Assembly (NCBI GenBank): GCA_041664925.1
Contig: JBAYJV010000001.1
Span: 56,121-120,120, forward strand
Direction: 5' to 3'
Length of the DNA: 64,000 bases
From: Minisyncoccota bacterium
Lineage (GTDB): Bacteria; Patescibacteriota; Minisyncoccia; JBAYJV01
The stretch's first letter is position 1. Every line of letters begins with the position of its first letter. Positions 7,368 through 56,232 of this stretch are shown here, piece by piece. The notes under the pieces were generated by a model that worked only from the letters and a program-made list of their open reading frames with translations, searched no databases and was not told the DNA's origin. The translations under genes were made by a program, and so were the position numbers.

Positions 7368-7754
7368 CTACTCGACAGGAATGAGACAAACGCCAAGACG
7401 ATATTTCTTCTTATCGTCTTCGCAAGACAGATCGACCGGAGCTAATCCACTAGTACTGTGCCAACCAAGTCTTCCGTCTCCACTCGAATCTCTGGCCGCA
7501 ACCAACGATTCGATGGTAACGATAGTTGCTTCAATCTTACACTCTGCGGTGTTTCTCTTGCGAGCCTTCATGAAACTGGGCTCCGCCTTTACGATTGCTT
7601 CTTCGCGTCCTTTCGCAAGAACATACGCCCTGACATCAATGGGAACTGTCCCGGGCGCTCTCTCGTCGCTGTCATAGTAAGAACCCATGAAATGAACGCA
7701 CCAGAACATCTCACCTTCGTCAGTTGGACGAGTTGTTGAGATAATCCCTGCCAT
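7368..7754 (-). CDS. Hypothetical small protein (128 aa), GC-rich island gene
   Basis: AGGAGG sits 10 nt before the ATG. It has a dedicated TTGATT-N17-TATAAT promoter and its own terminator. GC content is clearly above its surroundings. No recognisable family. Confidence 0.5.
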   Translation of the reverse strand: MAGIISTTRPTDEGEMFWCVHFMGSYYDSDERAPGTVPIDVRAYVLAKGREEAIVKAEPSFMKARKRNTAECKIEATIVTIESLVAARDSSGDGRLGWHSTSGLAPVDLSCEDDKKKYRLGVCLIPVE

Positions 7755-7804
7755 AGACTCTCATCCTCCTTTTAGTCAAGAACCGAAGATTCTCCAACAT
7801 TCTC

Positions 7805-7832
7805 ATTATACCACATATTAATAAAAAATCAA
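7805..7832 (-). promoter_or_regulatory. Near-consensus sigma70 promoter (TTGATT-N17-TATAAT) driving 7368..7754
   Basis: Minus strand reads ttgattttttattaatatgtggtataat, then a ~45 nt leader, then AAAAGGAGG. Confidence 0.6.
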
Positions 7833-7927
7833 GCTTTTTGGGTTTGAACATCAAAAAATCACGGTTAATGTGACTTCTTAAATGAAACTTGTTTAATAAA
7901 ACAAGATTTTGCAACGCTATCAAAGAC

Positions 7928-8095
7928 ATATGTGGGAGGCTCAGCCTCCCACATATTTCAAAATCCCAGCGCCAGATATGGAAAATCGGAGGCTAAGCCT
8001 CCGATTTGAGTCTCCGATTTGGTTAAAATATTCAACGCAAATGTTCAACACTCGGTGTCTAATATCTAGTCGTTATCAGGCATTTGTTGATAACA
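7928..8095. repeat. Double-palindrome module, copy 1: pal1 at 7928-7956, pal2 at 7983-8007, plus a conserved AT-rich tail
   Basis: atatgtgggaggctcagcctcccacatat and aaatcggaggctaagcctccgattt are both perfect. The module is almost identical to the copy at 10476-10620 and continues into the shared spacer and promoter at 7805-7925. Confidence 0.7.
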
Positions 8096-8118
8096 AGATT
8101 TTTCAATGCCATTAAGGT

Positions 8119-8430
8119 TTAGAAATAACCGCAAACAACTTTACCGTCAATTAATGACCAACAGTCTGATTCATTTTCATAATTAGCACAGTGTCCGACT
8201 ACGTTTTCCTTGCCCTCATTTTCCCACCCAAAATCACATCTTCCTTGGCATTGGTTTGAGTCCGTGCATTCTTTGCCGCCGTCATTCATTTTGTGATTAC
8301 AGGTCTGCCAAAGGGATGCCCATTTTCCACCCTCAAGTAAACAGAAAGCGTGTGGTATTTTCGGTATTAGTATTGCTCCAATAGTAATTAAAATTAATAA
8401 AGTTATAAAAAGAGTAATTTTCTTTTTCAT
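8119..8430 (-). CDS. Small secreted cysteine-rich protein (signal peptide plus 12 Cys)
   Basis: Hydrophobic N-terminus MKKKITLFITLLILITIGAILIP followed by Cys-rich CTDSNQCQGRCDFGWENEGKENVVGHCANYENESDC. Confidence 0.45.
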   Translation of the reverse strand: MKKKITLFITLLILITIGAILIPKIPHAFCLLEGGKWASLWQTCNHKMNDGGKECTDSNQCQGRCDFGWENEGKENVVGHCANYENESDCWSLIDGKVVCGYF

Positions 8431-8468
8431 ATTTTTTTATTATATATTAATTAAAAAATGTTATTAAA

Positions 8469-8996
8469 TTATTTGGATAATGACGGATAATTCCAATCCT
8501 CAATGAATTTAACTGGATAGGGAGGTAATAATTCAATCAAGGCCGTGCCGAATGTCGCCGAAATAATATTCGCAATCAAAATAGCAAGTATAAGTTTTTT
8601 GAAGCTAACTTTCTTTAATGCTATTTTTAAGAATATACTTTCGAAACAAACAATGATTAGTTCGGGGAAAAATAACATCCTCCAAATATAGCTTGCTGAT
8701 TTCGCAGATGCCTCATGATAACCCATGTTTGCAAGGAAAACATACAGAAGCGCTACCGATATTGCATTAGCTATGATAATAAAAAGAATTTCTTTCTTTT
8801 TTCTAAAACCAAATAACCAAAGAATTGACAACTCCAATAAAAGAGCAACTAATAAAGTTACTCCAAATTTTTCTATGTGAAATAAAGATGTTTGGGGTCC
8901 AATATATGAATTATCAAGAACGATGGGATTAGCTAAAACACAACTACATGACAATAAGCCAATAAATGAAAATAGCAAAACAAATACCTTTTTCAT
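8469..8996 (-). CDS. Multi-pass membrane protein, hypothetical
   Basis: Several hydrophobic segments and AT-rich host-like composition. Confidence 0.4.
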   Translation of the reverse strand: MKKVFVLLFSFIGLLSCSCVLANPIVLDNSYIGPQTSLFHIEKFGVTLLVALLLELSILWLFGFRKKKEILFIIIANAISVALLYVFLANMGYHEASAKSASYIWRMLFFPELIIVCFESIFLKIALKKVSFKKLILAILIANIISATFGTALIELLPPYPVKFIEDWNYPSLSK

Positions 8997-9366: not shown

Positions 9367-9401
9367 CAAAAAAAAGGGGTGCCACGCACCTGCGCGACAC
9401 C
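9367..9401 (-). terminator. Intrinsic terminator for 9423..9785
   Basis: 10-bp stem ggtgtcgcgc-aggt-gcgtggcacc followed by T8 on the minus strand. Confidence 0.65.
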
Positions 9402-9422
9402 CAGCTATTTACCTCTTTTCTC

Positions 9423-9785
9423 CTAGCAACTTCTGGTTCCAAATGCTCCCAGAGGAACCCGAGAAACATCGAACACTGGAACCCGTACTCTCTGACGGAC
9501 TCCCGACAACCTCGATCCTTCCTTGTCGTAGGCTTCTACCGGTTTCCACTTTCTCTCGAAAGCAACCGGCTCATGCGGAACTGGGATGATGGTGTCGGAC
9601 TGACCATGAAATGTAACGGTCAGCGGACATCCACATTCCAGACACTTGTCCGGAGGGAAATCAAAGCCCATGTGGGTCGGTACTTCGTGTCCGTTTTTGC
9701 AGAAGCGAACACTGTTTGTATCCCACGAGCCGAACCAATCGCCGATACGACTCGTTGTGACCATAGCTGTGGTAGCCATGACCAA
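9423..9785 (-). CDS. Hypothetical small protein (120 aa) with CxxxH...CxxC(x)C motifs, GC-rich island gene
   Basis: GGAGG sits 6 nt before the ATG. It has its own TTGATT-N17-TATAAT promoter and terminator. CKNGH...CLECGC suggests a zinc ribbon. Confidence 0.5.
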   Translation of the reverse strand: MVMATTAMVTTSRIGDWFGSWDTNSVRFCKNGHEVPTHMGFDFPPDKCLECGCPLTVTFHGQSDTIIPVPHEPVAFERKWKPVEAYDKEGSRLSGVRQRVRVPVFDVSRVPLGAFGTRSC

Positions 9786-9827
9786 CCTCCTTTTACTGCT
9801 TTTTGAGTCTCTGACGGTACTACTTCT

Positions 9828-9856
9828 ATTATACCATATTCAAATACAAAAATCAA
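9828..9856 (-). promoter_or_regulatory. Near-consensus sigma70 promoter driving 9423..9785
   Basis: Minus strand reads ttgatttttgtatttgaatatggtataat. Confidence 0.6.
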
Positions 9857-9941
9857 GCTTTTTGGGGGTAAAATACACAAAAAAAGGCCGTCTTCGCACA
9901 CTTGTACGAGTACGGCCTCTACGCTACGCTTCAAGACACGG

Positions 9942-10279
9942 TTACGAAATCTTGCGCAGAACCTCTTCGCTTGCAGAATGAGTAGCTTCGATGAACCAAC
10001 TAGACACGACTCCCAAATTAGACATTTCTGTTTCGAGAAGGCCTTCAAATACCACTAGATACGGAGTGAACGCTGGGCCAAGATTATAAGTCGTCACGGC
10101 AATTCTCAAGATATCGGCCTTTGAATCTCCACCCGTCTTCACGAGAATATACTCTTCAACGAAACCCCTGTAAAACAGGGCTAAAATTAGCTCGTTAAGA
10201 GCAATGTGAGGCAAAAGTTCGCGAACTTGTACAGGCCCACCCTCTTTCGTCCTATCTCTGTAGAAACTCACTTTTACCA
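9942..10279 (-). CDS. Hypothetical small protein (~112 aa from MVKVSFYRDR), GC-rich island gene
   Basis: AAGGAGG sits 7 nt before the ATG at 10279. The longer ORF start at 10343 has no SD. A terminator hairpin ggccgtcttcgcacacttgtacgagtacggcc plus T7 lies at ~9886-9925. A TTGATT-N17-TATAAT promoter lies at 10351-10379. Confidence 0.5.
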
Positions 10280-10350
10280 TTGCGCAACCTCCTTGGTTTT
10301 GAGATTGAATACTTCTATAATCAAAAAACCGCTTTTTGATCATCTACGTG

Positions 10351-10379
10351 GATTATATCATATTAAGATACAAAAATCA
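10351..10379 (-). promoter_or_regulatory. Near-consensus sigma70 promoter driving 9942..10279
   Basis: Minus strand reads ttgatttttgtatcttaatatgatataat. Confidence 0.6.
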
Positions 10380-10620
10380 AGCTTTTTGGGTTTGAACATC
10401 AAAAAATCACGATTAATGTGACTTCTTAAATGAAACTTGTTTAATAAAACAAGATTTTGCAACGCTATCAAAGACATATGTGGGAGGCTCAGCCTCCCAC
10501 ATATTTCAAAATCTCATCGCCAGATATGGAAAATCAGAGGTTTAGCCTCCGATTTGATGAAAATATTTAACGCAAATATTCAACACTCGGTGTCTAACGT
10601 CTAGGCATTATCAAGGATTA
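10380..10620. repeat. Double-palindrome module, copy 2: pal1 at 10476-10504, pal2 at 10532-10555 (2 mismatches)
   Basis: About 95% identical to 7836-8095 over ~250 bp, including the spacer hairpin cttgttttattaaacaag. Confidence 0.7.
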
Positions 10621-13639: not shown

Positions 13640-14486
13640 AAAGACGGCCCCAGAGATTCTTTTCCCTGGGACCGCAACTCTCTCATTTTAGCTCCGTAGT
13701 AAGACCGACATTTCGCCGTCGGTCGCGCCCCGTCTAGACATTCGTCTAGGTGACGAGGTACCGACCCTGTAACTTCCGGGGTAACTGTTTGATCGTCAGC
13801 ATACCCGACTCCATCCCCCCAATCGCTTCGCGTCCATGACGCGACGCCTTCCTTCGCAATAGTTAGCGAACCTGTAGACCGCAGACCTCGGTAGAGCGAA
13901 AGCCCTATTGCCAAACTTCGCGTCTCCGTCCCGAGTTCACCGGCGAAATTCTCTAGTGTGAACGCGGAATATGATCTTCTAGTCTCTTCCTGGCTTTTTT
14001 TGCCATTGCCAGTTCCTGGTAACCGTTTTCTATGTACCTACGTGAATCCGCTCATGCCTCCCCTTCCATTATAGTAGGGATTTATCAGGCGATAGGGTTA
14101 CCTATTAAGGTAACGCTTCGCCCTCGCACCATTCTCTGTCCGACTTGTCGCTAATTTCTATGGATGGTAAGGTTCTATGAGCCCGGTGGACTCTCCTCCT
14201 TTCAAGTTTAGGGTTCCGATTTGCTGCTCTCCCGAGCTAGCGCCATTTAGACTGTACACGCATACCGAGATGTTGGTCGCATATCGCGTACCAAGCGTTG
14301 GTTATGCAGTGGGTTGTTAAGTACAACCAGACTCGGAAACCCCAACTCACTTTGTTGCACACTCTCTACGTCAACTGAAGAACAAGACTCGTGATGCTAC
14401 AGATGATCGCAAGGCACGACATGATGAAAGCTTCGCGTGGCCACTTAACCATAACGCTCAACCTCCTCTTTCATTCTCTATTATCC
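13640..14486 (-). ncRNA. Candidate large structured ncRNA of ~850 nt. It begins with a 28-codon hydrophobic micro-ORF and ends at an intrinsic terminator.
   Basis: A perfect TTGACA-N17-TATAAT promoter lies at 14487-14515 (minus). About 52% GC against an AT-rich background. No ORF of 60 aa or more in any frame across ~800 nt. Many local hairpins, for example ctagacgaatgtctag, gaccgacggcgaaatgtcggtc and cgcgtcatggacgcg. A terminator hairpin plus T8 lies at ~13633-13672. Near the 5' end, an SD precedes the ORF MVKWPREAFIMSCLAIICSITSLVLQLT. Confidence 0.35.
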
Positions 14487-14515
14487 ATTATAGCATACCC
14501 CATTCCAAATGTCAA
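14487..14515 (-). promoter_or_regulatory. Consensus sigma70 promoter TTGACA-N17-TATAAT for the 13.6-14.5 kb unit
   Basis: Minus strand reads ttgacatttggaatggggtatgctataatgg. Confidence 0.6.
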
Positions 14516-14631: not shown

Positions 14632-15267
14632 TCAGTTATTAACTAAGTCCTTCATTCTTCGAATAAGATCTTCCTTGAAATCAAAAGCAGCAAACTTACA
14701 GGTTTCCAGTAATTGCTTAAGGGTTTTGGCCTTTTCGCCCATCTTTACAATAGCTAATCCGGCAAGACTTCCGCGGGGATTATTCTCACGAATCTTGGCC
14801 CATTTTTCAAAGGACAAATCGAGTCCGCGAATTTTGGCAAGAATTGTTTCTCTTCTTTGAAGATTACTGTCATCTTCACGATAAACTTCAAGATATTCGT
14901 CAATCCTATTTGCCAATTTTACCATTTCTTCATCAGCAATAAGTCCTATGTGTCCAAGACCAGGATCAGCTTCTTTGGCTCTTCTCCAGTCACTAAAGGT
15001 TCCTAACCTTTTCATCTCTACAAGAACCACTTCTGCTTTACTAAGCGGTCCGCGAAGATAAGTCTGTAACCAATTATCAAAAGTTCCTAGGCGCCGCATT
15101 CTTGAGACAATTTTAATACGAATTTCTCCGGAAGCATGTCCATACGCTTCCAATAAATCTTGGAAATTCAACGCATCAAACTCTTCTGGGGTTAAGTTGT
15201 CCCATTTAAGAACAACTGCCAAACCAATTCCCGCTGTCTTGACTAACTCGTCAAACTCTATTGCCAT
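14632..15267 (-). CDS. Hypothetical protein (211 aa) with an internal RLGTF(D/S)(N/D)W repeat
   Basis: Long ORF. Terminator hairpin gagcgg...ccgctc plus T-run downstream. No family recognised. Confidence 0.45.
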   Translation of the reverse strand: MAIEFDELVKTAGIGLAVVLKWDNLTPEEFDALNFQDLLEAYGHASGEIRIKIVSRMRRLGTFDNWLQTYLRGPLSKAEVVLVEMKRLGTFSDWRRAKEADPGLGHIGLIADEEMVKLANRIDEYLEVYREDDSNLQRRETILAKIRGLDLSFEKWAKIRENNPRGSLAGLAIVKMGEKAKTLKQLLETCKFAAFDFKEDLIRRMKDLVNN

Positions 15268-15284
15268 GTTTCCTCCTTGTCTTT

Positions 15285-15698
15285 TTACTTTTTCGGACTG
15301 ACAAAGATATAAAGTTCTGCTGTTCCAGAACCATAGCCAATATGATATTCAATTGGCTCAATGGATTCTATGATATAATTCTTGCTAATCTCTTTTAGTC
15401 CTTCTCTTAGAGCATCCCCAAGACCTATTCCCTCTGAGCTGCCGCTATTACCTATGATACGATTTAATTCTAGAGCAACAATTCTTGCTAGATTTGGCTG
15501 AATCCATTCAATTGAGTAGCTTGGTTTTTCTACTTCAATAACGGGCGTGGAAGAATTCTTGCTCCTACCACATCCTGATAGAATCACACATACCGCCAAA
15601 ACTAAACAAATAACTCCAACGACTGGCCAACCAAATGCTTTTTTCTTTGTCATATTTCCTCCCTCTATGTTTTTTGAGAACTGCCCACATCCTATCAC
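15285..15698 (-). CDS. Putative lipoprotein
   Basis: Signal peptide ending ILSGC (lipobox-like). Confidence 0.45.
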   Translation of the reverse strand: MIGCGQFSKNIEGGNMTKKKAFGWPVVGVICLVLAVCVILSGCGRSKNSSTPVIEVEKPSYSIEWIQPNLARIVALELNRIIGNSGSSEGIGLGDALREGLKEISKNYIIESIEPIEYHIGYGSGTAELYIFVSPKK

Positions 15699-17612: not shown

Positions 17613-17674
17613 AAAATATAATATATTATTGTATAAAAAAAGAGTCCCGGTTTCTGCCGGGGCTCGTTTTGTTT

Positions 17675-17938
17675 CTACTCGGCGCAATATGAAACAAGCG
17701 GAATGACTCTGACATAAAGCATGAACATCTTAGGGCAAGGTATCACGCGCCTCCCAAAACGAACAAACCAAGAAGGGTTTTTACTATACGAATCGCTAAT
17801 GTAAATTATTCTCTTGGTAACCTTCACAACAAAACCAATGCGCCTCTCCCCAATAAAACCAGCCTCAACAAAAGATATCGCATCTCCTACTTTTAGGCTC
17901 CTGATGACATTGTCATCTTTTTCCCTCTGCATGTTCAT
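17675..17938 (-). CDS. Hypothetical small protein (87 aa), moderately GC-rich
   Basis: ORF in a GC-enriched block. A bidirectional terminator hairpin lies at ~17640-17670. Confidence 0.35.
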   Translation of the reverse strand: MNMQREKDDNVIRSLKVGDAISFVEAGFIGERRIGFVVKVTKRIIYISDSYSKNPSWFVRFGRRVIPCPKMFMLYVRVIPLVSYCAE

Positions 17939-17971
17939 TTTCCCTCCTCAGCACACTCTTTCTCTCTTTTT

Positions 17972-18349
17972 TCAGTTTCTCTGTGTCTCTTGAGGCGCCA
18001 CTTCCGCACCCCGCGTTTCGCGGAACTTCCGAACCTTGTCAAGGATTTCGACATAGACCGGCAGGTATAGTCGAGCAGCTTCAGTAAATTGATCATGTAT
18101 TTCTTGAGCCTTCTCTATGGATTGCGCTTTGTCCCTAAGAAGAATCTGTCCACTATCTCTCAAGGATAGAACATAACCCTTGGTTTCTCCACCGATCAGC
18201 TTATTGACCCAATTACAGGCTTCGACGACCAACCCTGATCTTTCATTTGTTGGGTCCTTCTTAAACTCCTCGTTTCTTTGAACAAGTTGTTTATAAGCCC
18301 AACCTTTTGCCAAACTGCGTACTCGTTCTTCAATCGTCTTTATCTGCAT
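17972..18349 (-). CDS. Hypothetical small protein (125 aa), GC-rich island gene
   Basis: A TTGACT...TGATAGAAT promoter lies at ~18463-18495 (minus). The leader has a cccggcatgccggg hairpin, and an SD precedes the ATG. Confidence 0.45.
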   Translation of the reverse strand: MQIKTIEERVRSLAKGWAYKQLVQRNEEFKKDPTNERSGLVVEACNWVNKLIGGETKGYVLSLRDSGQILLRDKAQSIEKAQEIHDQFTEAARLYLPVYVEILDKVRKFRETRGAEVAPQETQRN

Positions 18350-18622
18350 TTTCTCCCTCCATTAGAGATTCTCGGTGAGTCTACGAACTTAGAAGCTCTT
18401 ATGTCTCGCCGAACCCCGGCATGCCGGGGGAAGGCGGACAAAAAACCTATCTTTTATTCCTACTACGTATTCTATCACACTCTTCAAAAAAGTCAATAGT
18501 GCCGTTGCAATCGCTCTTTTTTAAGGTAAGATTAAGTTAGAGAACTTTTAATTATCAATTTTCGATTTTTTTATTCGAAATCTTTACTTTTCACTTTACA
18601 CTTTAAATTTTAAACTTGAAAC

Positions 18623-36857: not shown

Positions 36858-36995
36858 AATATCCTCCTTCGTCCCTTGGCCTGCCTATCGGTAGACAGGG
36901 CTACGGAAGGATTATTGATTGCATATTTCTTCACTTCGTTCAGAAACGCAATCAATAAAAAAGAAGGGGGGTACCGCTCTGGTACCCCCTCTCGT
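36858..36995 (-). other. Composite 3' module of gene 37003..37653: terminator, then the 11-bp inverted repeat ttattgattgc...gcaatcaataa, then a structured motif AUCCUUCCGUAG-hairpin-CGAAGGAGGAU
   Basis: The same three-part arrangement occurs at 55811-55918 downstream of 55924..56232. Confidence 0.5.
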
Positions 36996-37002
36996 AAAAG
37001 CT

Positions 37003-37653: not shown

Positions 37654-37713
37654 TTGCGCCTCCTTGTGATGGCTTGTATGAAGAGAACTAGCTAACCTTC
37701 TTTTCACTATCCA

Positions 37714-37741
37714 TTATAGCATATTTGACATTGAAAGTCAA
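37714..37741 (-). promoter_or_regulatory. Consensus sigma70 promoter for 37003..37653
   Basis: Minus strand reads ttgactttcaatgtcaaatatgctataatgg. Confidence 0.6.
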
Positions 37742-40693: not shown

Positions 40694-41338
40694 CTAGCAG
40701 GGCAACTTTTTCAGGTCTAAAAGATCTTTGTATCGGGCTATTATACCCCTATCATCCGCTCCAATAATCTCGCTATCCACAGAAAGCATGGGAATTTCAT
40801 CTAGGAAGAAGAAGTGCCTATCAAGAATAATTTCGTTTTTATCTTCGGGTGGATCAGACAATTTCTCTCCGACATAAATCAGTACCACCGGTTGACCATG
40901 GATCAAAAATGCTGATTTTGATAACGATCTTCCTCTCAATATTAAGACTTTTTCGATCTCGTAATCTCCGACTTCTTCTCTTAGTTCTCTTAATGCTGTA
41001 TCTCCAGGCCTTTCACCATCCCTTGAGTATCCCTGAGGAAGTTCCCAACCCTCAACCTGAGGAATTGGCCTCCATTTGCGAACTAATCCGATTCTGCCAG
41101 ATTCATCAATCGGCAGGACATATACCCCCGGTCTTTCATCTAGAGCCATTTGATCCCAGTCAATCTTTTTTGTAATTGGATCAATAACGGCTAGATGGGG
41201 CACATTTCCAAAAGGACTATGGGCATCTCTGGCAACTCTACCGCTTCCATCTCGCCAAATGCTAGAAGAATTGTGTACAAGATAAGACGGATCACGCTCG
41301 GCCGCTGTTACAAACGGAACAGCAACTTGTCTGCGCAT
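40694..41338 (-). CDS. NUDIX hydrolase
   Basis: Nudix box GWELPQGYSRDGERPGDTALRELREEVG. Confidence 0.7.
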   Translation of the reverse strand: MRRQVAVPFVTAAERDPSYLVHNSSSIWRDGSGRVARDAHSPFGNVPHLAVIDPITKKIDWDQMALDERPGVYVLPIDESGRIGLVRKWRPIPQVEGWELPQGYSRDGERPGDTALRELREEVGDYEIEKVLILRGRSLSKSAFLIHGQPVVLIYVGEKLSDPPEDKNEIILDRHFFFLDEIPMLSVDSEIIGADDRGIIARYKDLLDLKKLPC

Positions 41339-41448
41339 AAATATCGTCCTCCTTTAGATTATCTTAGCGAACAAGGTGAGCTTTAGATAATTTTAAGTCC
41401 TGCCGAAGTCCTGCCTGACGGCAGGCAGGCTTAACGAAGGCGGACAAT

Positions 41449-42117
41449 TCAGCTACCATCCACTAATTCACTTAAAGAACTAATTACGATATCTGCTCCT
41501 GCCTGTATAAGTGCATCTGCGCTGACGGTTCTGGTAATCCCAATTGCCAGCATTTTTGCTTTGCGAGCAAGTTTCATATCACCAGAACCATCGCCAACTA
41601 AACATCCTTGACTAGTAAAGTCATCAAAAGAAACATCAATTATCTCAGCAAATATGGTAATGTGCGCCCCACCTTTTGGAATATCATCAGAACCTAAAAA
41701 CATAGTAAAGTACTCCAATAAGCCCGTTTCCCTAAGCCGTCTATGAAGAATACGCCCCTTGGTCCCGCTCGTAATAAACATCTTAACGTTTTCTCTCTTT
41801 AAATCATCAAGAAGTTGCCTGACATCATTAAAAAGATCTGCTGGCAATTCTTCGCTCATTTCAAAAAATTCTTCGTACCTCTCGGCAATATCGGCTTCAG
41901 TAAAAGATTTTCCTTCTTGCCTTAACAATCCCCTGAATTGCTCTTTGAGATTCATGCCTGCGGTAGCAAAATAAAATCTTCTCGCGACATCTTTATCGAC
42001 ATCGAAATAACGATGCACTAGATCACTGAAAGTTTCTCTGTATCCAGGCATCGTATTAAAGAGCGTTCCATCAGCATCAAAAACCACAAATCTTTTACAT
42101 GCAAGTTGTTTCCCCAT
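41449..42117 (-). CDS. HAD-superfamily hydrolase (phosphatase)
   Basis: Motif I VVFDADGTLFNT. Confidence 0.7.
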   Translation of the reverse strand: MGKQLACKRFVVFDADGTLFNTMPGYRETFSDLVHRYFDVDKDVARRFYFATAGMNLKEQFRGLLRQEGKSFTEADIAERYEEFFEMSEELPADLFNDVRQLLDDLKRENVKMFITSGTKGRILHRRLRETGLLEYFTMFLGSDDIPKGGAHITIFAEIIDVSFDDFTSQGCLVGDGSGDMKLARKAKMLAIGITRTVSADALIQAGADIVISSLSELVDGS

Positions 42118-43858: not shown

Positions 43859-44194
43859 ATTATTCTCTGTAAAATTCTTGGCAAAGAAATCATTAGAAGT
43901 TAAAAGTGTAAAGTGAAAAATGAAAAATCACAATGTAAAATTGAAAATTTTAAATTTTAGATTGTTGTTTTTATCTTTTCGTTTTTAGTTTTTCGCTATT
44001 AATGATCGCAACTTCACAATTAAAATCCAACTGTCATCCTGACCCTGTACCGTACGGTGCAGGGGAAGGATCTCGAGAACTTGTCCTGAGCTTGTCGAAG
44101 GATTCTTCACTCCGTTCAGAATGACAGATATTCTAACTATTTGTAACTATTTACGTCTTTATACGCATAAATTCGTATTTTGACACCAAAACTA

Positions 44195-44223
44195 TTGCTT
44201 TTTTATATTAAATATGGTATAAT
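44195..44223 (+). promoter_or_regulatory. Sigma70 promoter TTGCTT-N17-TATAAT for 44256..44684
   Basis: ttgcttttttatattaaatatggtataat. Confidence 0.55.
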
Positions 44224-44255
44224 GATAATAGGCAAAAAATCGTAAGGAGGTTTTT

Positions 44256-44684
44256 GTGACAGACAGCGACGAGAAGATTCCAGTAGAGGCAACTCTGGTT
44301 GTCAAAAGGGGTGGCGAGACTCACACCATCGGCATCACCGACGAGTTGTACATGTGCGAGATCCTTGAGGACCTCAGAACGGCTAAGGATCCCGCTGCGC
44401 ATCTCGCGAACTTCATCGAAGAGGAGATGGGCAAGCGTCCACGGCGACAGTCTGCTTCAGAAGAAGACTGTCGCGAATGGCCAGATGGATTCATGTCTGG
44501 AGATAGAGTAACATGGTGTCGGCCAGAAAATCATCGAACAAAAGCTCTTGTGGTGTCTTGGCCCAGAAAAGAGGTCCCTGATGGGAAAGTGCCCGTCAGA
44601 ATCAATCTGGGAAAGCCGGATGAAGATTCATTGGAGTTCGCCGATCCGAAAGACCTAACCCAAGGCGGACCAGCCTGGCCCTAG
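44256..44684 (+). CDS. Hypothetical protein (142 aa; GTG start), GC-rich island gene
   Basis: AAGGAGG sits 5 nt before the GTG. Terminator gaccgcccag...ttgggtggtc plus T-run at ~44719-44760. Confidence 0.45.
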   Translation: MTDSDEKIPVEATLVVKRGGETHTIGITDELYMCEILEDLRTAKDPAAHLANFIEEEMGKRPRRQSASEEDCREWPDGFMSGDRVTWCRPENHRTKALVVSWPRKEVPDGKVPVRINLGKPDEDSLEFADPKDLTQGGPAWP

Positions 44685-44721
44685 GAGACAACTAAGCAAT
44701 CAGTATCAAGCGACCGCCCAG

Positions 44722-46317
44722 CTAGGAGAGTTGGGTGGTCGTTTTCTTTTTCTCCAATAATGGTAAAGAAGAAACGATTGCTATTTCAGCCGCAAAAAAC
44801 ATCATTACCCTAGCATCAAAAATTGCAATATCAAAGAAAGAGTAAACAAAAACCCACAAGAAATAAAATCCTAAAAATGCCACCAAAAGACTATGTGAGT
44901 CTTTAATCTTTTCTTTAAAGAAAAGATAACATCTTTTAAGAATTTCATAGAAAATCAAAACATTCAACATTAATCCCAAAATTCCCATTTCTGCGCCAGA
45001 ATTTAAATAAACATTATGAGCAGTTGAGCCGGCTTTTTGAAGCAAGACATCTTGTTCAAGCACGACCGGAAAATTACCGATCCCTACGCCCAAGAAAGGT
45101 CTTTTTATAATTGACTCAACGCTTTTTTTCCAGATAAAAAGTCTTCCTTGATTTGAGGTTTCTTCGATATCAAAAATACTTTTAAGTCTTTTTAGGGTTA
45201 AGGTATTGTCTATTTTATCTTTAGCATTGAATTGAGAAATTGAAAGAAAAAGAGAAGACACTAATAACATTATTATAAAAGAAGAAAGGGTGATGAGGAT
45301 AATTTTCGTAGTATTCCCTCCTTTTTTCTTTATAAGAAAGTAAAGCGCCATTACAATCGGAGCTCCAACGCTTAGCCAAACTCCCCTCGTTCCAGAAAGA
45401 GCAATAAAAAATTGCATCAGACACAAAACGATGGCTTGTAGAATTAAAATCGCATCTATTTTTTTATTCTTTAAATAACGACTCACCATAAACCAGAGTA
45501 AAATCGGTGTTGCCAAAACAAGATAAAGAGCAAAAGAATGCGAATCGGTCATTGTTGAAAAAAGCCTTAGACGAGGTGAGCGACCAGGAGAATAAGAAAA
45601 CCAAGTATTTGCTCCAGAAACAATATTAGCCAGATCCGTTCCATAAAAAGTTTGAGCTACCTTCCATGTCCACCATTCCCAAAAATGACCTAGGCTTGTG
45701 AAATAACTGAAGATAAGCTGGAAAACACCGGCAATAAAAATAAATAAGGAAGATACAAATAAATACTTAATTGTTTTTTTGAGAAGATTTTTCTTTTTAA
45801 TAATATACAACGCTAGTGGATATATTAGAATCATTTGTCCTACATAAAATAATCTTTTTATGGCTGTTCCTTTGTCAAAAGCGACAAGAACTGATATGAG
45901 CGCTAAAGAAAAATAAAGAACTGTCCAAAGTTCTAGTTTATTATTATTTAAATGAAGCCAAATCTTTTTTGGTAATTTTTTCCAAAAATCAATTTTAAGT
46001 AAAATTCGAAGTGGAAATTGCTGAGCTAAATATCTTGTAAAAAGAATCAATATTGCAATTCGCCAGATATTTAGAGAATCAAATCCGCGAGAAACTGGAA
46101 GCGCGACGAATAATGGAATTGTTAGTAGGTAAAAAAGAATACCATCTTCAATCTTCATTAAGAAAAGATAAAAAAAGATCAGAAAAGCTGATCCAGCGAT
46201 TGTTTCTCTCGGCAAAAATCCAAAAACAATACCTAAAATAATAATTAAATTAAAAACATAAAGAAGGTAAATCGGGTTTATGTAAATGTTCTTTTTAAAA
46301 AAATTTATTAATTTCAT
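44722..46317 (-). CDS. Polytopic membrane protein, O-antigen ligase/polymerase-like
   Basis: At least 10 predicted TM helices with a large loop. Located in the glycosyltransferase cluster. Confidence 0.45.
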   Translation of the reverse strand: MKLINFFKKNIYINPIYLLYVFNLIIILGIVFGFLPRETIAGSAFLIFFYLFLMKIEDGILFYLLTIPLFVALPVSRGFDSLNIWRIAILILFTRYLAQQFPLRILLKIDFWKKLPKKIWLHLNNNKLELWTVLYFSLALISVLVAFDKGTAIKRLFYVGQMILIYPLALYIIKKKNLLKKTIKYLFVSSLFIFIAGVFQLIFSYFTSLGHFWEWWTWKVAQTFYGTDLANIVSGANTWFSYSPGRSPRLRLFSTMTDSHSFALYLVLATPILLWFMVSRYLKNKKIDAILILQAIVLCLMQFFIALSGTRGVWLSVGAPIVMALYFLIKKKGGNTTKIILITLSSFIIMLLVSSLFLSISQFNAKDKIDNTLTLKRLKSIFDIEETSNQGRLFIWKKSVESIIKRPFLGVGIGNFPVVLEQDVLLQKAGSTAHNVYLNSGAEMGILGLMLNVLIFYEILKRCYLFFKEKIKDSHSLLVAFLGFYFLWVFVYSFFDIAIFDARVMMFFAAEIAIVSSLPLLEKKKTTTQLS

Positions 46318-49913: not shown

Positions 49914-50079
49914 ACTTTTTAAAATTTAAAATATTTCATACTTTCTCATACTCTATCAGATTAATTAATTTTCTCAATACCTCCAAGCTGTGGATAATTG
50001 ATAAATACAATAAAAAAAGGGCTCTTGCAACCGCAAGAGCCCAAAGAAACTAAGAACTCAAAGAACAAATTAAGGAACT

Positions 50080-50095
50080 AAGTGCCTAAGCACTT
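50080..50095 (-). promoter_or_regulatory. DGR-associated hairpin directly after VR-A: 6-bp stem aagtgc/gcactt with loop ctaa
   Basis: Same hairpin at 52852-52868 after VR-B. Absent after the TR. Confidence 0.5.
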
Positions 50096-50760
50096 TAGTC
50101 GCAGAGGCACAACAGGCAACAATCGTAACCCCAGCCGCGAACGAAACAATCGAGGTTGAAGACCCAACCGCCATCCAGGCGCTGATTCACGCGCGGCACA
50201 CGGTGAGCGCCAGTTTCGTCTTTCCAGCAAGCTTCTTTCTCGTCAAGAGAAATAACCCACTTGCCTTTAGGGAATTTCTCTTTCGCCTGTTCATAGACAA
50301 CAGACAGCCCCTGAGCTCCAACAAGATATGCTCCCTGCGATTTCATGAAAGCCAATCCATCAGGAGAAGAAATCGGCGGTTTCCTGATCAAGAAGATCTT
50401 GGCTACATAGGTTTTGCCAGGAATGAGTCGATGAGTTGGATTCGCGAAGTTATCATTAGTGATTTTCTCGTTGAAATAGTTAAATTCACCGCGATGATTA
50501 TTCGCAAACAAGGCAAGCTGTGTGCTATGACTGTAGTCCAGAGGCACCTTCACCAAGAAAGTGCTCCATAGGGCAAAGCGATCATCTGGAACAGCGCCTT
50601 GGAGCAAAGCTCTCTTCAGGACCTCGTTAAGATCACCTTGACTTTTGCTCCATGCTTCTGCTGTTGCTTGCTCGATCTCGCCAGGTCGCGGCAATTGCCG
50701 AATGACACTGGCCAGAAACTCCACCCACCATCCTGAAACCTCTGGGGCTGTTCTGCTCAT
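50095..50760 (-). CDS. DGR target protein A. The C-terminal ~40 codons form variable region VR-A at ~50098-50213.
   Basis: The C-terminal 75 aa are nearly identical to target B. VR-A differs from the TR almost only at TR adenine positions. SD AAAGGAGGG before the ATG at 50760. Confidence 0.7.
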   Translation of the reverse strand: MSRTAPEVSGWWVEFLASVIRQLPRPGEIEQATAEAWSKSQGDLNEVLKRALLQGAVPDDRFALWSTFLVKVPLDYSHSTQLALFANNHRGEFNYFNEKITNDNFANPTHRLIPGKTYVAKIFLIRKPPISSPDGLAFMKSQGAYLVGAQGLSVVYEQAKEKFPKGKWVISLDEKEACWKDETGAHRVPRVNQRLDGGWVFNLDCFVRGWGYDCCLLCLCD

Positions 50761-51023
50761 AGCAGTTGTTCCCTCCTTTTCCAACTCTCTTGGCAAGCAT
50801 TGCGAGCCCTAGAGAGTTGTGATCCCGGATTGCCGGGACTTCTTTTGGCTATTAGATAGGCCGCCAAATGCCTTGCTCCCCACAACGAGAAGCGCAAAAG
50901 GCATTAAAATTAACGCTCTTTGCGCTTATTACTGTATTCATCTTTATCACGAAGAAACTACTTTCTTTCATTCTATCACACTTCAATAAAAAAATCAAGC
51001 GATTAACTTATTTTTAGAAATTA

Positions 51024-52407: not shown

Positions 52408-52424
52408 CAGGAGAAATCAAATTA

Positions 52425-52868: not shown

Positions 52869-53516
52869 TTAGTCGCAGAGGCACAACAGGCAATAACTGC
52901 AATTCCAGCCGCCCCCGAAATAATCGAGGTTGAAGCGCCAACCGCCAACCAGGCACTGAACCATGAACGGCACACGGGGAAAGCCAGAGGCGTCTTTCCA
53001 GCAAGCGTCTTTCTCGTCAAGAGAAATAACCCACTTGCCTTTAGGGAATTTCTCTTTCGCCTGTTTATAGACAACAGACAGTCCTTGAGCTCCAACAAGA
53101 ATTGCCCTATGTTGTCTCAGAACTGCCAAATTATCTTCCGAAGAAACAACTGATCCGGAAGTAATTCCAATCAGTTTTACAGTGTAAACCTTTCCCGGAA
53201 TCAGCTTTGTAGTAACGCCAGCAAAATGTTCGTCTGTAATATCATTGTTATAGAAGACAAAATCGCTACCATGCATGCGCTTGAATTTGGCAAGCTGAGT
53301 GGCATGGCCATAGTCATCAGGCACCTTAAATGTAAAAGTGCTCATGACAAAATATCGAGGATCTATGGTTCTTAAAAACCTTTCTCTTCCTTCTTTTGTC
53401 AAACCATTAAACCACTCCCATTGTTCAAGAGTGATTTGTCCTTGCCGCGCTTTCTGTAGCGTGTCAACTAGCAGACCAGCCATTTTGGCCGCTTCTGCGC
53501 CGATGACGATTGTCAT
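52869..53516 (-). CDS. DGR target protein B. VR-B at ~52873-52994.
   Basis: C-terminus GAQGLSVVYKQAKEKFPKGKWVISLDEKDACWKD...CLLCLCD. An adenine-specific TR/VR mismatch pattern. SD AAAAAAGGAG before the ATG. The 5' flank is shared with target A. Confidence 0.7.
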   Translation of the reverse strand: MTIVIGAEAAKMAGLLVDTLQKARQGQITLEQWEWFNGLTKEGRERFLRTIDPRYFVMSTFTFKVPDDYGHATQLAKFKRMHGSDFVFYNNDITDEHFAGVTTKLIPGKVYTVKLIGITSGSVVSSEDNLAVLRQHRAILVGAQGLSVVYKQAKEKFPKGKWVISLDEKDACWKDASGFPRVPFMVQCLVGGWRFNLDYFGGGWNCSYCLLCLCD

Positions 53517-53915
53517 CGTTTTCTCCTTTTTTGGCTGTTAAAGGCCGCCAGAACCTTGCTTCTCACAACGAGAAGCGCAAAAGGCATTAAAATTAACGCT
53601 CTTTGCGCTTATCGCTATAATTGCAAAATTAAAGATAACGCTCTTTGCGCTTATCGCTATAATTGTGCAAAATCCTATTTATTTCGCATCATATTTATAC
53701 ATACCACATTATTGGTAATAAATCAAGGGTTTAAGGGTGATATGTGTATATGTGTTGATTTTTTTAATTTTATAGTTACAATTGTCAATGCGTGTTAAAA
53801 AGACACATGTTCCTAAAAAGGAGGTTTATGACTTTTCCGTCAGCGCTTTCTCCTCCAAGACTCTTTTGACGAATTGGTGTGGTGACCAACAAACAAAAGT
53901 CAAAGGAGAGATACA

Positions 53916-54332
53916 GTGGATGTGACGGAACTTCGAACCCCAGTCTTGTTCCAAGACCCTGAAGTTGAAGGAGTATCCTTTCATATTGGGTGCAATCATG
54001 GTTCTCAGGAAATAATGCTCTGTGAAAGCAGTCAACAAGCATTAATGATGAGACAAGCTCTCGAATTAGTCGGTCTCAATGTCATTCCTGGAAAAGAGAG
54101 ACTTGAAACTAATGGTGATGGAAAAAGACAATTTAAGGCCTTCCCTATTAATGTAACGCCGGGTTGCCACAGAAATGGAACAGTTGTCGTAAACTGTCAT
54201 GATCAAACTGCGGCAATAGCGCTTGAAGTTCTTGTTCGTCAACCGAAAGTTCACTTTGCGTCATTTGATGTTCTCCCTATTAAAGATAGCAGAAGAAGTA
54301 CTGGAGGAAAAAGAGTTAGTAGTCGTAGATAA
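53916..54332 (+). CDS. Hypothetical protein (138 aa; GTG start), GC-rich island gene
   Basis: AAGGAGAG sits 6 nt before the GTG. It is preceded by a 13-codon micro-ORF MTFPSALSPPRLF that has a perfect SD. Confidence 0.4.
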   Translation: MDVTELRTPVLFQDPEVEGVSFHIGCNHGSQEIMLCESSQQALMMRQALELVGLNVIPGKERLETNGDGKRQFKAFPINVTPGCHRNGTVVVNCHDQTAAIALEVLVRQPKVHFASFDVLPIKDSRRSTGGKRVSSRR

Positions 54333-54387
54333 AACAATAAAGAACCTCGCTAGAAGTTAGCGGGGTTCATTTTTTTGTATTAATTTA

Positions 54388-55206
54388 TTATTTCATTATT
54401 TCTGAAACTTCCCTAAAACGATTAGGAAGAGTTTCTTTAAAGTATATTTCCCTTTCCAATTCGTTAATATTTTCGATATCCTGCCAAAGAGCTCTTCCTG
54501 CCAAAAATCCAACCGCGCCATTTTTTGATGCTACTTCAAGTTCCGATTCAAAAACTTCAAAACTCACTCCTTTAGTTAATAAAATCCAAGGAATACCTTC
54601 AAGAATTTTTGTTATATCCTTGCACAACAAATCATTTCCCGGAAAATCAAGTTTGAAAACATCGGGACGGATGTCATTTTTAAGTAATAATTTTAAAGAT
54701 TCTATAACTAGACCTACATCATTGCCTTCGTTCGGATCAATGATTACTTCTAGAAATAATGGTAACTCATTTTTCCTTGAATCCTCAAGGATTCTTTTTG
54801 CAATTTCGATTTGATGAATTGCGGTTTTTTTGTGAGGATGAAAAGGCAAGAGAAGTTTTACACCGGAAGCTCCTAGAATTTTAAGTTGCTCTACTTTATA
54901 TTGGATTTCTGTTTTTGGACCATCTTCGCTTTTTTCATATCCGGATCTTTCCGCACACAAAAGATAAGGAACTCCTTTGTCTTTTTTTATTTGATTATAT
55001 GCTTCATAGCCATAAAAAGGATCAATCAAAAGACCGCTCATTTGATCCAAGGTTGATTCAATGATTTTCTTTTTAAGTTCGACTATCTCTTCTTTTTTAA
55101 CGCTATCAGGATTACTGGGATTAATAATCTTTTTGAAGGTCGTTCTGTGATCAAGCGCCAGCATCAGAAACTTCCCGTCTTTCTTAAATATGTTTAAATT
55201 TGTCAT
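54388..55206 (-). CDS. Class I aldolase (DhnA/LacD-like fructose- or tagatose-bisphosphate aldolase family)
   Basis: FLMLALDHRTTF and TIM-barrel aldolase length. Start taken at MTNLNIFKK because the longer frame runs through a terminator-like hairpin. Confidence 0.5.
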   Translation of the reverse strand: MTNLNIFKKDGKFLMLALDHRTTFKKIINPSNPDSVKKEEIVELKKKIIESTLDQMSGLLIDPFYGYEAYNQIKKDKGVPYLLCAERSGYEKSEDGPKTEIQYKVEQLKILGASGVKLLLPFHPHKKTAIHQIEIAKRILEDSRKNELPLFLEVIIDPNEGNDVGLVIESLKLLLKNDIRPDVFKLDFPGNDLLCKDITKILEGIPWILLTKGVSFEVFESELEVASKNGAVGFLAGRALWQDIENINELEREIYFKETLPNRFREVSEIMK

Positions 55207-55433
55207 ATAGACTAATTCTATCAAAAAAAACCTCCCCTTGAAAGAGGGGGGAGATAGAAGATAGCCCCGCACAATTCTTGCTAAGCTTAAGTGAAGCTAG
55301 AATTTAGGGAGTCCCGTGAACCTTCGTGTATTTCAAGATAAACAAAGTAAAATATGCGGGGTCCTCGTAAAACCAATGATTCGCTAAGAGCTCATCAGGT
55401 TTTACGGGAAAGTTAGAATGCTGAATACAAAAT

Positions 55434-55751
55434 CTAATCACCAAGTTTTAATTTATAATCCTGACCGTTGTTTAATGAATGGTAGCTGAAAATTGAATTA
55501 TTGTATGGATCTCCTGAAATATATTCCTCGGTTTTTAATAGATTAATTAGCGATTCTCCATTATTGGCTTCGGGGTAAAACCCGTTGTTAGAATAATAAA
55601 GCTCAAGAGCAGTTGAAATTTGATGAATATTGGCTTGATTTGCCATAGATTTCGTTTCTTTTAAAATATCTTCTATATGCAAAGTTGCGCCATTAACGAC
55701 AATAGTGGTGCCGATGAGCGATGCGATTAGAAAATGTAGAAGTGATTTCAT
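55434..55751 (-). CDS. Secreted protein with a pseudopilin (GspG-like) C-terminal domain signature
   Basis: Signal peptide, then ISTALELYYSNNGFYPE...YISGDPYNN. It lacks a classical prepilin leader. Confidence 0.35.
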   Translation of the reverse strand: MKSLLHFLIASLIGTTIVVNGATLHIEDILKETKSMANQANIHQISTALELYYSNNGFYPEANNGESLINLLKTEEYISGDPYNNSIFSYHSLNNGQDYKLKLGD

Positions 55752-55810
55752 AATTTAGTTTTAGATAATATTCATATTCTATACAAATAATATCTTTTGT
55801 CAAGAAAAAA

Positions 55811-55918
55811 AGTCCTCCTTCGCCCTAACAGGCTACGGCGGGATTATTGATTGCATAATCTTCATTTTGTTCAGAAATGCAATCAATAAAAAAACCCGCC
55901 TTTTTCTTTTGGCGGGCA
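55811..55918 (-). other. Second copy of the composite 3' module: terminator, then the inverted repeat ttattgattgca...tgcaatcaataa, then a structured motif
   Basis: Downstream of 55924..56232. Collinear with 36858-36995. Confidence 0.5.
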
Positions 55919-55923
55919 ACACT

Positions 55924-56232
55924 CTAACTTCTTTTGCGATGAAAGAACTGCGACAAAGCAAAACGATGATGTTTTTCAGGCAATCTTGGTAATTCAGAAA
56001 CTTGACCAGTGGCAAAAGCGATCGCCTGACGCTTTATTTCTTCACATTTTTCATGCGACATACCCAATTCCTCGAACATATAACTTAAGGAATCTGTAAC
56101 TAATTCAGGCAAAGGTCGCCCTACTCTTTTTGCAAACATACTATCTAAAGCCATTTGGTCCCCAGCCATGCCGTCATACCACACATACTTTCTTTTTCCT
56201 CCAATTCTTTTGAGCCACCTGAATAACCTCAT
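55924..56232 (-). CDS. Hypothetical small protein (102 aa), GC-rich island gene
   Basis: AAAGGAGG before the ATG. The structured motif atcctcccgtagttctggcgagccagaacgaaggaggat lies in its leader. Confidence 0.4.
   Translation of the reverse strand: MRLFRWLKRIGGKRKYVWYDGMAGDQMALDSMFAKRVGRPLPELVTDSLSYMFEELGMSHEKCEEIKRQAIAFATGQVSELPRLPEKHHRFALSQFFHRKRS

Follow-up and report, generated by a model that had tools for sequence, protein, structure and literature searches.

Why do small genes of raised GC content, apparently carrying their own expression signals, stand among the AT-rich housekeeping genes of a Minisyncoccota chromosome? The question arises in a 64,000-nt stretch (the window) of contig JBAYJV010000001.1 (GenBank assembly GCA_041664925.1, positions 56,121 to 120,120). 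Genomes of the candidate phyla radiation (CPR; Patescibacteria) are rich in small hypothetical proteins, and their translation initiation is unclear. A sequence-only reading had listed at least eleven such units, had credited each with a consensus promoter, a Shine-Dalgarno (SD) sequence and an intrinsic terminator, and had proposed either acquired or phage/plasmid-derived cargo or a distinct, highly expressed regulon. The observation on composition and signals is real and statistically strong, and less uniform than first described. We hold with moderate confidence that the units are chromosomal accessory cassettes, resembling phage morons, which encode CPR-restricted orphan proteins and come from a CPR gene pool.

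A gene class with strong ribosome-binding sites

We curated 62 genes in the window (37.6% GC, with the majority of genes on the minus strand) and scored them for GC, GC at third codon positions (GC3), energy of the SD/anti-SD duplex, best −35/−10 match and energy of the downstream hairpin; 23 of them formed the housekeeping comparison set. With strong SD defined as a duplex dG <= −9 kcal/mol, 20 of the 62 genes had one and 42 did not. The 20 SD-led genes comprise all 11 listed coding units, as had been claimed, plus five hypotheticals, two genes near the window end, a NUDIX gene and a HAD hydrolase gene. No housekeeping gene was among them (0/23, versus 20/39 of the other genes; Fisher p=9.8e-6), and duplex energies were −12.1 kcal/mol for units versus +0.4 for housekeeping genes (p=3.5e-6). 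AAGGAGG occurs 34 times in the window where 8.6 are expected; five of these occurrences sit in a separate hairpin motif and nine in a region of very short open reading frames (ORFs), both described below. Three units (37003, 44256 and 53916) do use GTG starts.

The listed ORFs exist and are richer in GC than the core. Their GC ranged from 0.405 to 0.536, with a median of 0.454 versus 0.359 for the housekeeping set (Mann-Whitney p=8e-6), and their GC3 was mostly 0.43–0.60 (median 0.466 versus 0.295, p=9.5e-5). Dividing the whole gene set by SD instead gave mean GC of 0.439 versus 0.355 (p=3e-8), with GC3 also higher in the SD-led genes (p=4e-6). The difference is strong, but it does not delimit a discrete GC class: the nine SD-led genes beyond the list showed a modest excess (0.399 versus 0.353, p=5e-4), and three marginal units, u55924 (GC 0.405), u53916 (GC3 0.27) and u17675 (GC 0.42), are not separated from the upper end of the core values (dnaB, 0.431). 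SD is thus an all-or-none divider of the gene classes, whereas GC is graded, since the nine extra genes are just slightly enriched.

Codon usage, pooled, also set the units apart from the core (chi2=279, df=41, p=4e-37), codons ending in G or C being about twice as common in the units. Genes for ribosomal and translation proteins and RNA polymerase (L21, S2, L31, EF-Ts, release factor, rpoB) share the usage of the core, unlike the units. The first condition named as refuting the sequence-only reading, composition and codon usage no different from those of the highly expressed core, therefore does not hold. Codon bias of highly expressed genes was considered as the cause and rejected, because ribosomal-protein genes have core-like GC3 (0.23–0.32).

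Promoters were predicted for nine units at 9/12 consensus positions or better (u7368, u9423, u9942, u17972, u37003, u44256, u53916, target gene 1 of a diversity-generating retroelement (DGR) and the 13.6–14.5 kb unit), six of the nine reaching at least 10/12 with a TGn extension. A consensus promoter at every unit, as first described, is therefore too much: u17675 has none of its own and is bicistronic with u17972, and u55924 and DGR target gene 2 have poor ones. Nor is the core devoid of promoter matches. It lacks SD sequences as claimed, but rplU and a pilin-like gene score 11/12, and generic −35/−10 scores fail to separate units from core (p=0.12). What is specific to the class is the extended −10 promoter scoring at least 10/12, found in 8/20 SD-led and 0/42 SD-less genes (p=4e-5). 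On the second refuting condition, promoter-like sequences just as common before core genes, the outcome is mixed. The strong terminators were borne out, predicted hairpins having a median of −20.8 kcal/mol at units versus −7.5 at housekeeping genes (p=1.5e-4); they were also stronger in SD-led than in SD-less genes overall (p=0.002).

The regions around the start codons differ as well, those of SD-led genes being more structured (−8.4 versus −5.2 kcal/mol, p=0.008). SD-less leaders (upstream 20 nt, 41 genes) are 78% A/T; A accounts for 46–68% of the bases from −8 to −3, reaching 68% at −3, and T for 63% of those at −1. This pattern resembles the upstream-adenine, SD-independent initiation described in Bacteroidia (PMC13000457, PMC7797042).

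Two entries of the original list had to be redrawn. The ORF given as 9942..10279 was out of frame, its ATG lying at 10280 and its coding sequence (CDS) spanning 9942-10280. The 13.6–14.5 kb unit, thought to have no ORF, begins with an SD-led ORF of 28 codons. Coordinates of all units are collected in Table 1.

The association recurs in other low-GC Patescibacteria. Among 962 ORFs at loci fetched around dnaB or rpoB, 13 of the 28 genes lying more than 0.08 above the locus-median GC were SD-led, compared with 13.6% of all (p=2e-5). One contig of another Paceibacterota metagenome-assembled genome (MAG; L174, 2491-8185) bears about ten consecutive small genes (70–157 aa) on one strand, the majority with SD-like leaders and their own TTGACA-17-TATnnT promoters; one is a homologue of u7368. 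Such cassette arrays may be common in the clade.

Table 1. Units, further SD-led genes and a repeated hairpin motif in the window. Promoters and terminators are predicted. RT, reverse transcriptase; UTR, untranslated region.
Feature	Position	Strand	Signals and coding sequence	Composition and remarks
u7368	7331..7832	-	promoter TTGATT-16-TGgTATAAT 7805-7832; SD AAGGAGG 7765-7771; CDS 7368-7754 (128 aa); terminator 7331-7354	GC 0.496
u9423	9377..9856	-	promoter 9828-9856; SD 9786-9792; CDS 9423-9779 (118 aa); terminator 9377-9402	GC 0.527; Cys-rich
u9942	9879..10380	-	promoter 10352-10380; SD 10288-10294; CDS of 112 aa; terminator ~9879-9919	
13.6–14.5 kb RNA unit	13640..14515	-	promoter TTGACA-17-TGcTATAAT 14487-14515; 28-aa ORF 14366-14452; terminator 13644-13675	GC-rich conserved candidate RNA 13640-14365
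u17972+u17675	17646..18496	-	promoter TTGACT-16-TGaTAGAAT 18469-18496; CDS 17972-18349 and 17675-17938; shared terminator 17646-17661	bicistronic
u37003	36955..37741	-	promoter TTGACT-17-TGcTATAAT 37713-37741; SD 37659-37665; GTG-start CDS 37003-37653 (216 aa); terminator 36955-36989	GC 0.531, GC3 0.60
u44256 inserted cassette	44016..44772	+	SD 44244-44250; GTG-start CDS 44256-44684 (142 aa); terminator 44710-44752	
u44256 promoters	44180-44185; 44195-44223	+	TTGACA; TTGCTT-17-TGgTATAAT	
DGR target gene 1	50012..50993	-	promoter TTGATT-17-TGaTAGAAT 50965-50993; long 5' UTR; SD; CDS 50095-50760; terminator ~50012-50042	GC 0.497
DGR RT	51024-52244		SD-less	RVT_1 match; AT-rich; between the two targets
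DGR target gene 2	52869..53516	-	SD-led; 215 aa	GC 0.454
u53916	53755..54378	+	promoter TTGATT-16-TACAAT 53755-53782; GTG-start CDS 53916-54332 (138 aa); terminator ~54343-54378	GC 0.417, GC3 0.27; marginal
u55924	55888..56245	-	SD 56239-56245; CDS 55924-56232 (102 aa); terminator 55888-55917	GC 0.405; marginal; just 3' of tRNA-Trp
NUDIX, HAD hydrolase	40694..42117	-	SD-led; NUDIX 40694-41338; HAD 41449-42117	beyond the earlier list
Hypotheticals	14632..15653	-	SD-led; 14632-15267 (211 aa); 15285-15653 (122 aa)	second with lipoprotein-like N-terminus; region replaced in L087
Hypothetical	19303-20208	-	SD-led; 301 aa	
Hypothetical	20511-20936	+	SD-led; 141 aa	
Hypothetical	60491-60841	-	SD-led	
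Hypothetical	62176-62901	+	SD-led	
Hypothetical	63100-63495	-	SD-led; promoter matching consensus 12/12	
CCGTAG hairpin motif	9326-9356; 36863-36906; 55814-55838; 56293-56323	-		
CCGTAG hairpin motif	43213-43234	+		

Orphan proteins, gain and loss

The absence of any recognisable family among the listed proteins held up. Pfam and PADLOC gave zero matches for any of them, and PHROGs gave one marginal match among ten proteins scanned (u17675 to phrog_2251, E=9.5e-4). AlphaFold modelled u37003 confidently (predicted local distance difference test, pLDDT, 84; predicted template modelling score, pTM, 0.81) and u7368 with moderate confidence (pLDDT 72); no PDB chain matched either, and no viral model matched u37003. 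The families are tiny: among 5.8 billion proteins we found 7 relatives of u37003, 2 of u44256 and 14 of u7368, and among 1.84 billion cluster representatives 3 of u17972. All relatives with an identifiable source come from Paceibacterota- or Falkowbacteria-type MAGs or from unclassified metagenome contigs, at different loci in different CPR genomes, and no homologue more than 75% identical was found outside the same species group. The unit proteins appear to be small, soluble orphans restricted to CPR lineages.

The related loci compared include L084, L087 (DnaB 95–98% identical), L088 (DnaB 77%), L167 and L174. Across two related genomes, dN/dS was 0.18–0.49 in five units (u9423, u9942, u17675, u37003 and NUDIX) versus 0.016–0.18 in conserved neighbours; the units are thus coding and under purifying selection, and evolve faster than their neighbours. 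Amino-acid identity of units to their relatives was 63–77% where that of DnaB was 98%; the L087 orthologues of u9423 and u9942, for example, are 77% and 72% identical, with dN/dS of 0.23 and 0.24. Because the proteins are small, fast-evolving and patchy, and lie in variable islets beside the DGR and surface-polysaccharide genes, we infer roles in conflict or host interaction.

One gain is that of u44256. L084 lacks two segments of the window, 44016-44772, with u44256, and 41401-42146, with the HAD gene. The first, a 757-nt cassette with a 96-nt hairpin element and its own promoter, SD, ORF and terminator, interrupts wzy at its 3' end. L084 Wzy ends in ...AEVAIINSEKLKTKR, whereas window Wzy ends in ...AEIAIVSSLPLLEKKKTTTQLS, encoded by the inserted DNA; a fossil of the wzy 3' end (its last 14 codons) at 43966-44016 encodes EVAIINSEKLKTKR*, identical to the L084 C-terminus. 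Since the insert left this fossil of the L084-type ending, it was the window lineage that gained the cassette. On either side of the insert, at 44001-44015 and 44773-44787, lies one copy of an imperfect 15-nt direct repeat (11/15). The HAD gene is likewise an indel relative to L084, placed between the NUDIX promoter and the NUDIX 5' UTR.

Other relatives add to the variation. L087 retains u9423, u9942, u17675 and the RNA unit, and carries an extra 680-nt cassette (promoter, three SD-led small ORFs, terminator) precisely at the junction of the u9942 terminator with the u9423 promoter; in L087 neither DNA nor protein search found a counterpart of window 6.1–9.3 kb, which includes u7368, or of 14.4–15.7 kb. 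The dnaB–recR interval holds five small SD-led ORFs in L088, three of them tandem paralogues of u17972, and two in the window. The variable presence that the sequence-only reading proposed to check applies to u44256, the L087 cassette and the L088 gene sets, while other units have diverged together with the backbone. Among these is u37003, whose L084 orthologue is syntenic, between rmlC and grx, with neighbours 77–97% identical and a GC of 0.49 in a backbone of 0.35. Here promoter, SD, the last ~60 coding nt and terminator are nucleotide-identical between window and L084, at a gene-wide dS of 0.93.

Cassettes, native regulon or remnants

If the units are moron-like accessory cassettes, each would be transcribed from its own sigma-70-type promoter, often with an extended −10, singly or as a two- or three-gene mini-operon, translated through canonical SD/anti-SD contact and ended by a strong intrinsic terminator. 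Native genes would follow another regime, with short, A/U-rich, SD-less leaders enriched in adenines at −8 to −3. Because it carries all its own signals, a cassette would be expressible wherever it is inserted and insulated from its neighbours. Cassettes would be gained and lost singly, at terminator/promoter junctions or gene 3' ends, and their intermediate GC, codon usage and SD would most likely derive from a pool of small orphan genes common to higher-GC Patescibacteria. Once resident they would be inherited vertically for long periods, evolving several-fold faster than housekeeping genes while purifying selection persists, and the foreign signature would fade slowly or never. The earlier proposal of acquired cargo with its own signals is upheld as to kind (orphan, fast-evolving, some of it single-cassette indels). 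Most units are not recent arrivals.

The moron is reportedly a concept of Hendrix and Juhala. Phage morons are transcribed independently, each from its own promoter to its own factor-independent terminator (PMC3594210); they differ in GC from flanking genes, are present or absent between collinear relatives, and encode small accessory proteins of mostly unknown function. These traits recur here, with promoters and terminators as predicted from sequence; the u44256 cassette, the HAD gene and the three-ORF cassette of L087 are extra DNA in just this sense, each a precise indel. The differences are that our units lie between housekeeping genes of a bacterial chromosome and not in a prophage, that no phage relatives were found in the databases searched (below), that most have passed down vertically ever since the nearest relatives branched off, and that their translation-initiation signal is unlike that of their neighbours. 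For want of a phage context they are not strict morons.

Two other kinds of gene invite comparison. Genes gained by transfer and ORFans tend to be richer in AT than the host genome. The window units are GC-richer, with an excess that persists over dS of ~0.7–0.9; otherwise they match the atypical class of GeneMarkS-2 (PMC6028130) in being short, fast-evolving, lineage-restricted and patchy, with deviant composition and codon usage. Integron cassettes are also single-gene modules set head to tail, with hairpin repeats between them and cassette-by-cassette variation. Those are promoterless and driven by the common Pc promoter, however, whereas the window cassettes have near-consensus promoters and terminators of their own and are scattered along the chromosome rather than held in one array; we saw no integrase and recognised no attC-type site, though no attC model was run. 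With promoters of their own and no integrase among the window proteins scanned, the units are not integron cassettes. The cassette pattern is notable yet fits a known kind of genome feature, and if the units are merely slowly ameliorating transfers, they would be one more ordinary, if well documented, example of atypical accessory genes.

The u7368 family looks like the naturalisation of a transferred gene. In hosts of 0.38–0.51 GC, the excess of gene over host runs from +0.12 in the window, with AAGGAGG, through +0.06, +0.04 and +0.03 to 0.00 in Falkowbacteria, and SD strength drops alongside, from −12.7 in the window to no SD in the Falkowbacteria relative, which is AT-rich (GC3 0.26) with a weak terminator.

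With n=5 this trend is not significant (Spearman rho=-0.7, p=0.19), and several observations weigh against acquisition from such a pool. The u37003 family stands +0.11 to +0.18 above host GC in all four of its genomes, including a host of 47% GC. By three-taxon parsimony its strong-to-weak and weak-to-strong substitutions are balanced in the window (31:30) and L167 (36:28), L084 being the sole AT-biased lineage of the three (44:19); a rough neutral decay model, our own approximation, predicts ~2.6:1, from which the window count deviates (binomial p=4e-4). These spectra point to maintenance of GC rather than decay, and with GC elevated in all hosts, simple amelioration is insufficient. GC may be kept up by selection on protein or RNA properties, or by biased gene conversion in often-recombined cassettes. 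Most units share the dS of their neighbours (0.44–0.93), so they are long resident and have diverged together with the backbone, yet they remain GC-rich. Variability is not specific to the GC-rich class, since L087 shows the same lack of conservation for small, AT-rich membrane genes without an SD that lie in the same islet (8119-9259). We found no donor (the closest relatives are 48–75% identical), and transfer is accordingly inferred rather than seen; the window yielded neither a mobility gene nor a defined recombination site.

Much of this would suit a native translational regulon, which we regard as unlikely, though the strongest competitor of acquired cassettes. Bulk translation would be SD-independent as in Bacteroidia, and genes with a strong SD and GC-rich, stably structured mRNAs would be translated strongly, or solely when the anti-SD is available; GC and signals would then be kept by selection and be no relic of transfer. 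The sharp split in SD between housekeeping and other genes and the Bacteroidia-like adenines of SD-less leaders fit this, and structured GC-rich start regions would need an SD to initiate. Two of three u37003 lineages have GC at equilibrium, and the promoter, SD and terminator of this gene have stayed nucleotide-identical at dS ~0.9, which suggests selection keeping composition and signals. There is precedent in Flavobacterium, where ribosomes without bS21 translate SD-led mRNA better (PMC9976891). But the AT-rich, SD-less u7368 member of Falkowbacteria indicates that the signals are no fixed family property, the members are unrelated orphans without a common function that are gained and lost as cassettes, and their codon usage is unlike that of ribosomal-protein genes.

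In Bacteroidia, translation is SD-'blind' with few SD-led genes, such as rpsU (PMC7797042, PMC9976891, PMC13000453), and the anti-SD is sequestered by bS21, bS18 and bS6. Here too most genes, all housekeeping genes included, are SD-less with A-rich leaders beside a minority with very strong SD; about a third of genes are SD-led, however, these are orphan accessory genes rather than rpsU, and the organism belongs to Paceibacterota. An anti-SD motif is visible in just 48% of Parcubacteria 16S sequences (PMC9297842); the window contains no 16S rRNA, and no rRNA gene is among the genes called in the 10 kb beyond it. That two initiation regimes operate side by side, with anti-SD availability switching the whole GC-rich accessory set as a specialised-ribosome regulon of the reduced CPR ribosome, is a doubtful idea. 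Should the split hold genome-wide, it would offer a sequence rule to tell an exchangeable accessory pool from the native core, ready strong promoters, ribosome-binding sites and terminators for CPR genetics, and a concrete test of selective SD pairing by CPR ribosomes.

Derivation from phages or plasmids was part of the sequence-only reading; we judge it improbable that integrated elements left the units behind, whether as true morons or as plasmid genes. The anatomy described above matches (PMC3594210), a VirD4-like coupling protein is encoded at 21546-23255, and the weak u17675 match is to a PHROGs family. Against this, tblastn of the twenty SD-led proteins (concatenated) found no match in 50,697 GenBank phage records, nor did the nine listed ORF units in 72,556 PLSDB plasmid records; neither the u37003 nor the u7368 family alignment picked up a relative in IMG/VR, there was no PADLOC match, and PHROGs gave no second match among the ten proteins. 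CPR phages are poorly sampled, so missing phage matches are weak evidence. The unit neighbours are rpoB, dnaB, recR, rmlC, grx, wzy and rpmG/tRNA-Trp, in conserved synteny as rmlC|unit|grx, dnaB|units|recR and rpmG-tRNA-Trp|unit. No integrase, transposase or recombinase family appeared among ~60 window proteins scanned with Pfam or NCBIfam, and no capsid or replication genes of phage or plasmid kind were seen in the window. The genes that can be recognised there are those of an ordinary chromosome: information processing (rpoB/C, dnaB, recR, secDF, L21, S2, L31, L33, EF-Ts, a release factor and four tRNAs), metabolism (gdh, trxB, grx, FBPase), a surface-polysaccharide cluster, the VirD4-like ATPase and the DGR. 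The rpoB product is at best 62% identical to any GTDB species representative, its top matches being Paceibacterota/Parcubacteria MAGs (Jorgensen-, Ryan- and Liptonbacteria) and other CPR labels such as Saccharibacteria.

De novo birth is more improbable again. GC-rich structured RNAs or hairpins would offer the sole long stop-free frames, gain an SD and become proto-genes, with mini-ORF arrays and the RNA unit as intermediates. Extreme orphan status, the lack of resemblance of either modelled protein to a known fold, long antisense ORFs in every GC-rich unit, and GC-rich non-coding transcripts with several SD-led tiny ORFs (13.6–14.5 kb and 28.6–30.0 kb) would accord with such an origin. Yet u37003 and u7368 are predicted to fold confidently and their families span genomes of 33%–52% GC at 35–62% identity, as expected of old, selected proteins; dN/dS is well below 1, and for none of the units did a non-coding ancestor sequence turn up. 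Finally, we reject an assembly or binning artefact, with GC-rich pieces of other organisms joined into an AT-rich contig. The window does come from a metagenome (it corresponds to part of the 327-kb JGI contig Ga0376277_0000246), and composition changes abruptly at unit borders. But independent assemblies (JGI 3300037810, ENA ERZ27249449, Logan SRR18595301 and SRR6484324) have these junctions too, with ENA contig k141_764501 (ERZ27249449) carrying the same genes and several Logan contigs encoding identical proteins; orthologous arrangements recur in the diverged L084 and L087, and promoters and terminators join native sequence seamlessly.

The candidate RNA unit, repeats and neighbouring features

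The 13.6–14.5 kb unit has a perfect TTGACA-17-TATAAT promoter with TG, and its initial SD-led ORF encodes a hydrophobic peptide, 28 aa long in the window; the L087 peptide has 56 aa, including a membrane helix at the C-terminus. Downstream of the small ORF come ~700 nt of 49% GC, ending in a strong terminator. When window and L087 are aligned, variable stems separate blocks of perfect conservation, and indels (1, 2, 7 and 8 nt) leave no conserved long ORF. RNAalifold on these two sequences gave 146 pairs, 18 of them with compensatory changes, and the minimum free energy z-score was −3.05. No RNA family matched 13.3–14.7 kb in Rfam at E<=10; an Rfam scan of the whole window at gathering thresholds returned the four tRNAs and nothing else. 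A GGAGAGTCCACCGGGCTCATAG block suggested a divergent RNase P RNA, which was dropped as no RNase P model matched at E<=10. No further copies were found by nhmmer with the window/L087 alignment in 2.3 Mb of CPR loci, or by an exact 44-mer scan of IMG/VR. The unit is a candidate large structured RNA or long structured 3' UTR.

At 28560-30000, on the minus strand, two GC-rich (0.44–0.48) transcription units hold about 12 tiny SD-led ORFs of 6–38 codons (for example MKRAMVL and MKRMAEEDNM...), with nine AAGGAGG sites in the region. Both close with the same 61-nt terminator module (28568-28628 and 29497-29557, 92% identical).

Hairpin repeats accompany some of the units and are absent from others. 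The motif CCGTAG-[stem-loop]-(C)GAAGGAGG has five copies where 0 are expected, mostly between a unit terminator and the next promoter; its CCUCC-like 5' arm pairs with an SD-like 3' arm, and it thereby supplies AAGGAGG sites with no following gene. A palindrome, ATATGTGGGAGGCTSAGCCTCCCACATAT, occurs four times (7171-7207, 7924-7960, 10472-10508 and 13485-13521) and sits in a repeated module of ~186–260 nt (7824-8009, 10372-10557 and 13385-13570), which also provides the AAAAAGCTTGATTTTT...TGgTATAAT promoter of u7368 and u9942; copies lie at matching places in L087.

The 96-nt hairpin element of the u44256 insert (CTGTCATCCTGA...TCAGAATGACAG) lies at its left end, at window ~44030-44130. A copy 78% identical is found at L087 5747-5842, between lipase-like and M73-like genes, where the window site is empty; this is behaviour like that of a miniature inverted-repeat transposable element. 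The u37003 3' end (36955-37060), together with a downstream TATTGATTGCAT...ATGCAATCAATA hairpin module, is essentially identical to L084 10590-10770, possibly through RNA-level constraint, as a 3'-derived small RNA or as a recombination anchor. The same module recurs 3' of u55924 (55813-55893).

u55924 is the sole unit adjoining a tRNA gene: rpmG (L33, 56480-56638) is followed by tRNA-Trp, the CCGTAG hairpin motif and u55924 (window 56262-56638). In many bacteria secE-nusG takes the place after rpmG/tRNA-Trp.

Within the DGR (50040-53665), region 50094-50372 recurs at 52868-53146 and at 52415-52541, ~80% identical; by sequence these look like two variable repeats and a template repeat. A bAvd gene was called on the plus strand, overlapping the RT start (L168 1-232).

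An AT-rich intergenic repeat with TTTCGAATTTCGAAATTCGAATTTCG occurs at 36413-36473, 38478-38538, 46345-46405 and 47596-47656, and also in L084. It lies 5' of polysaccharide, rmlC and trxB-type core genes and may be a native promoter or operator module.

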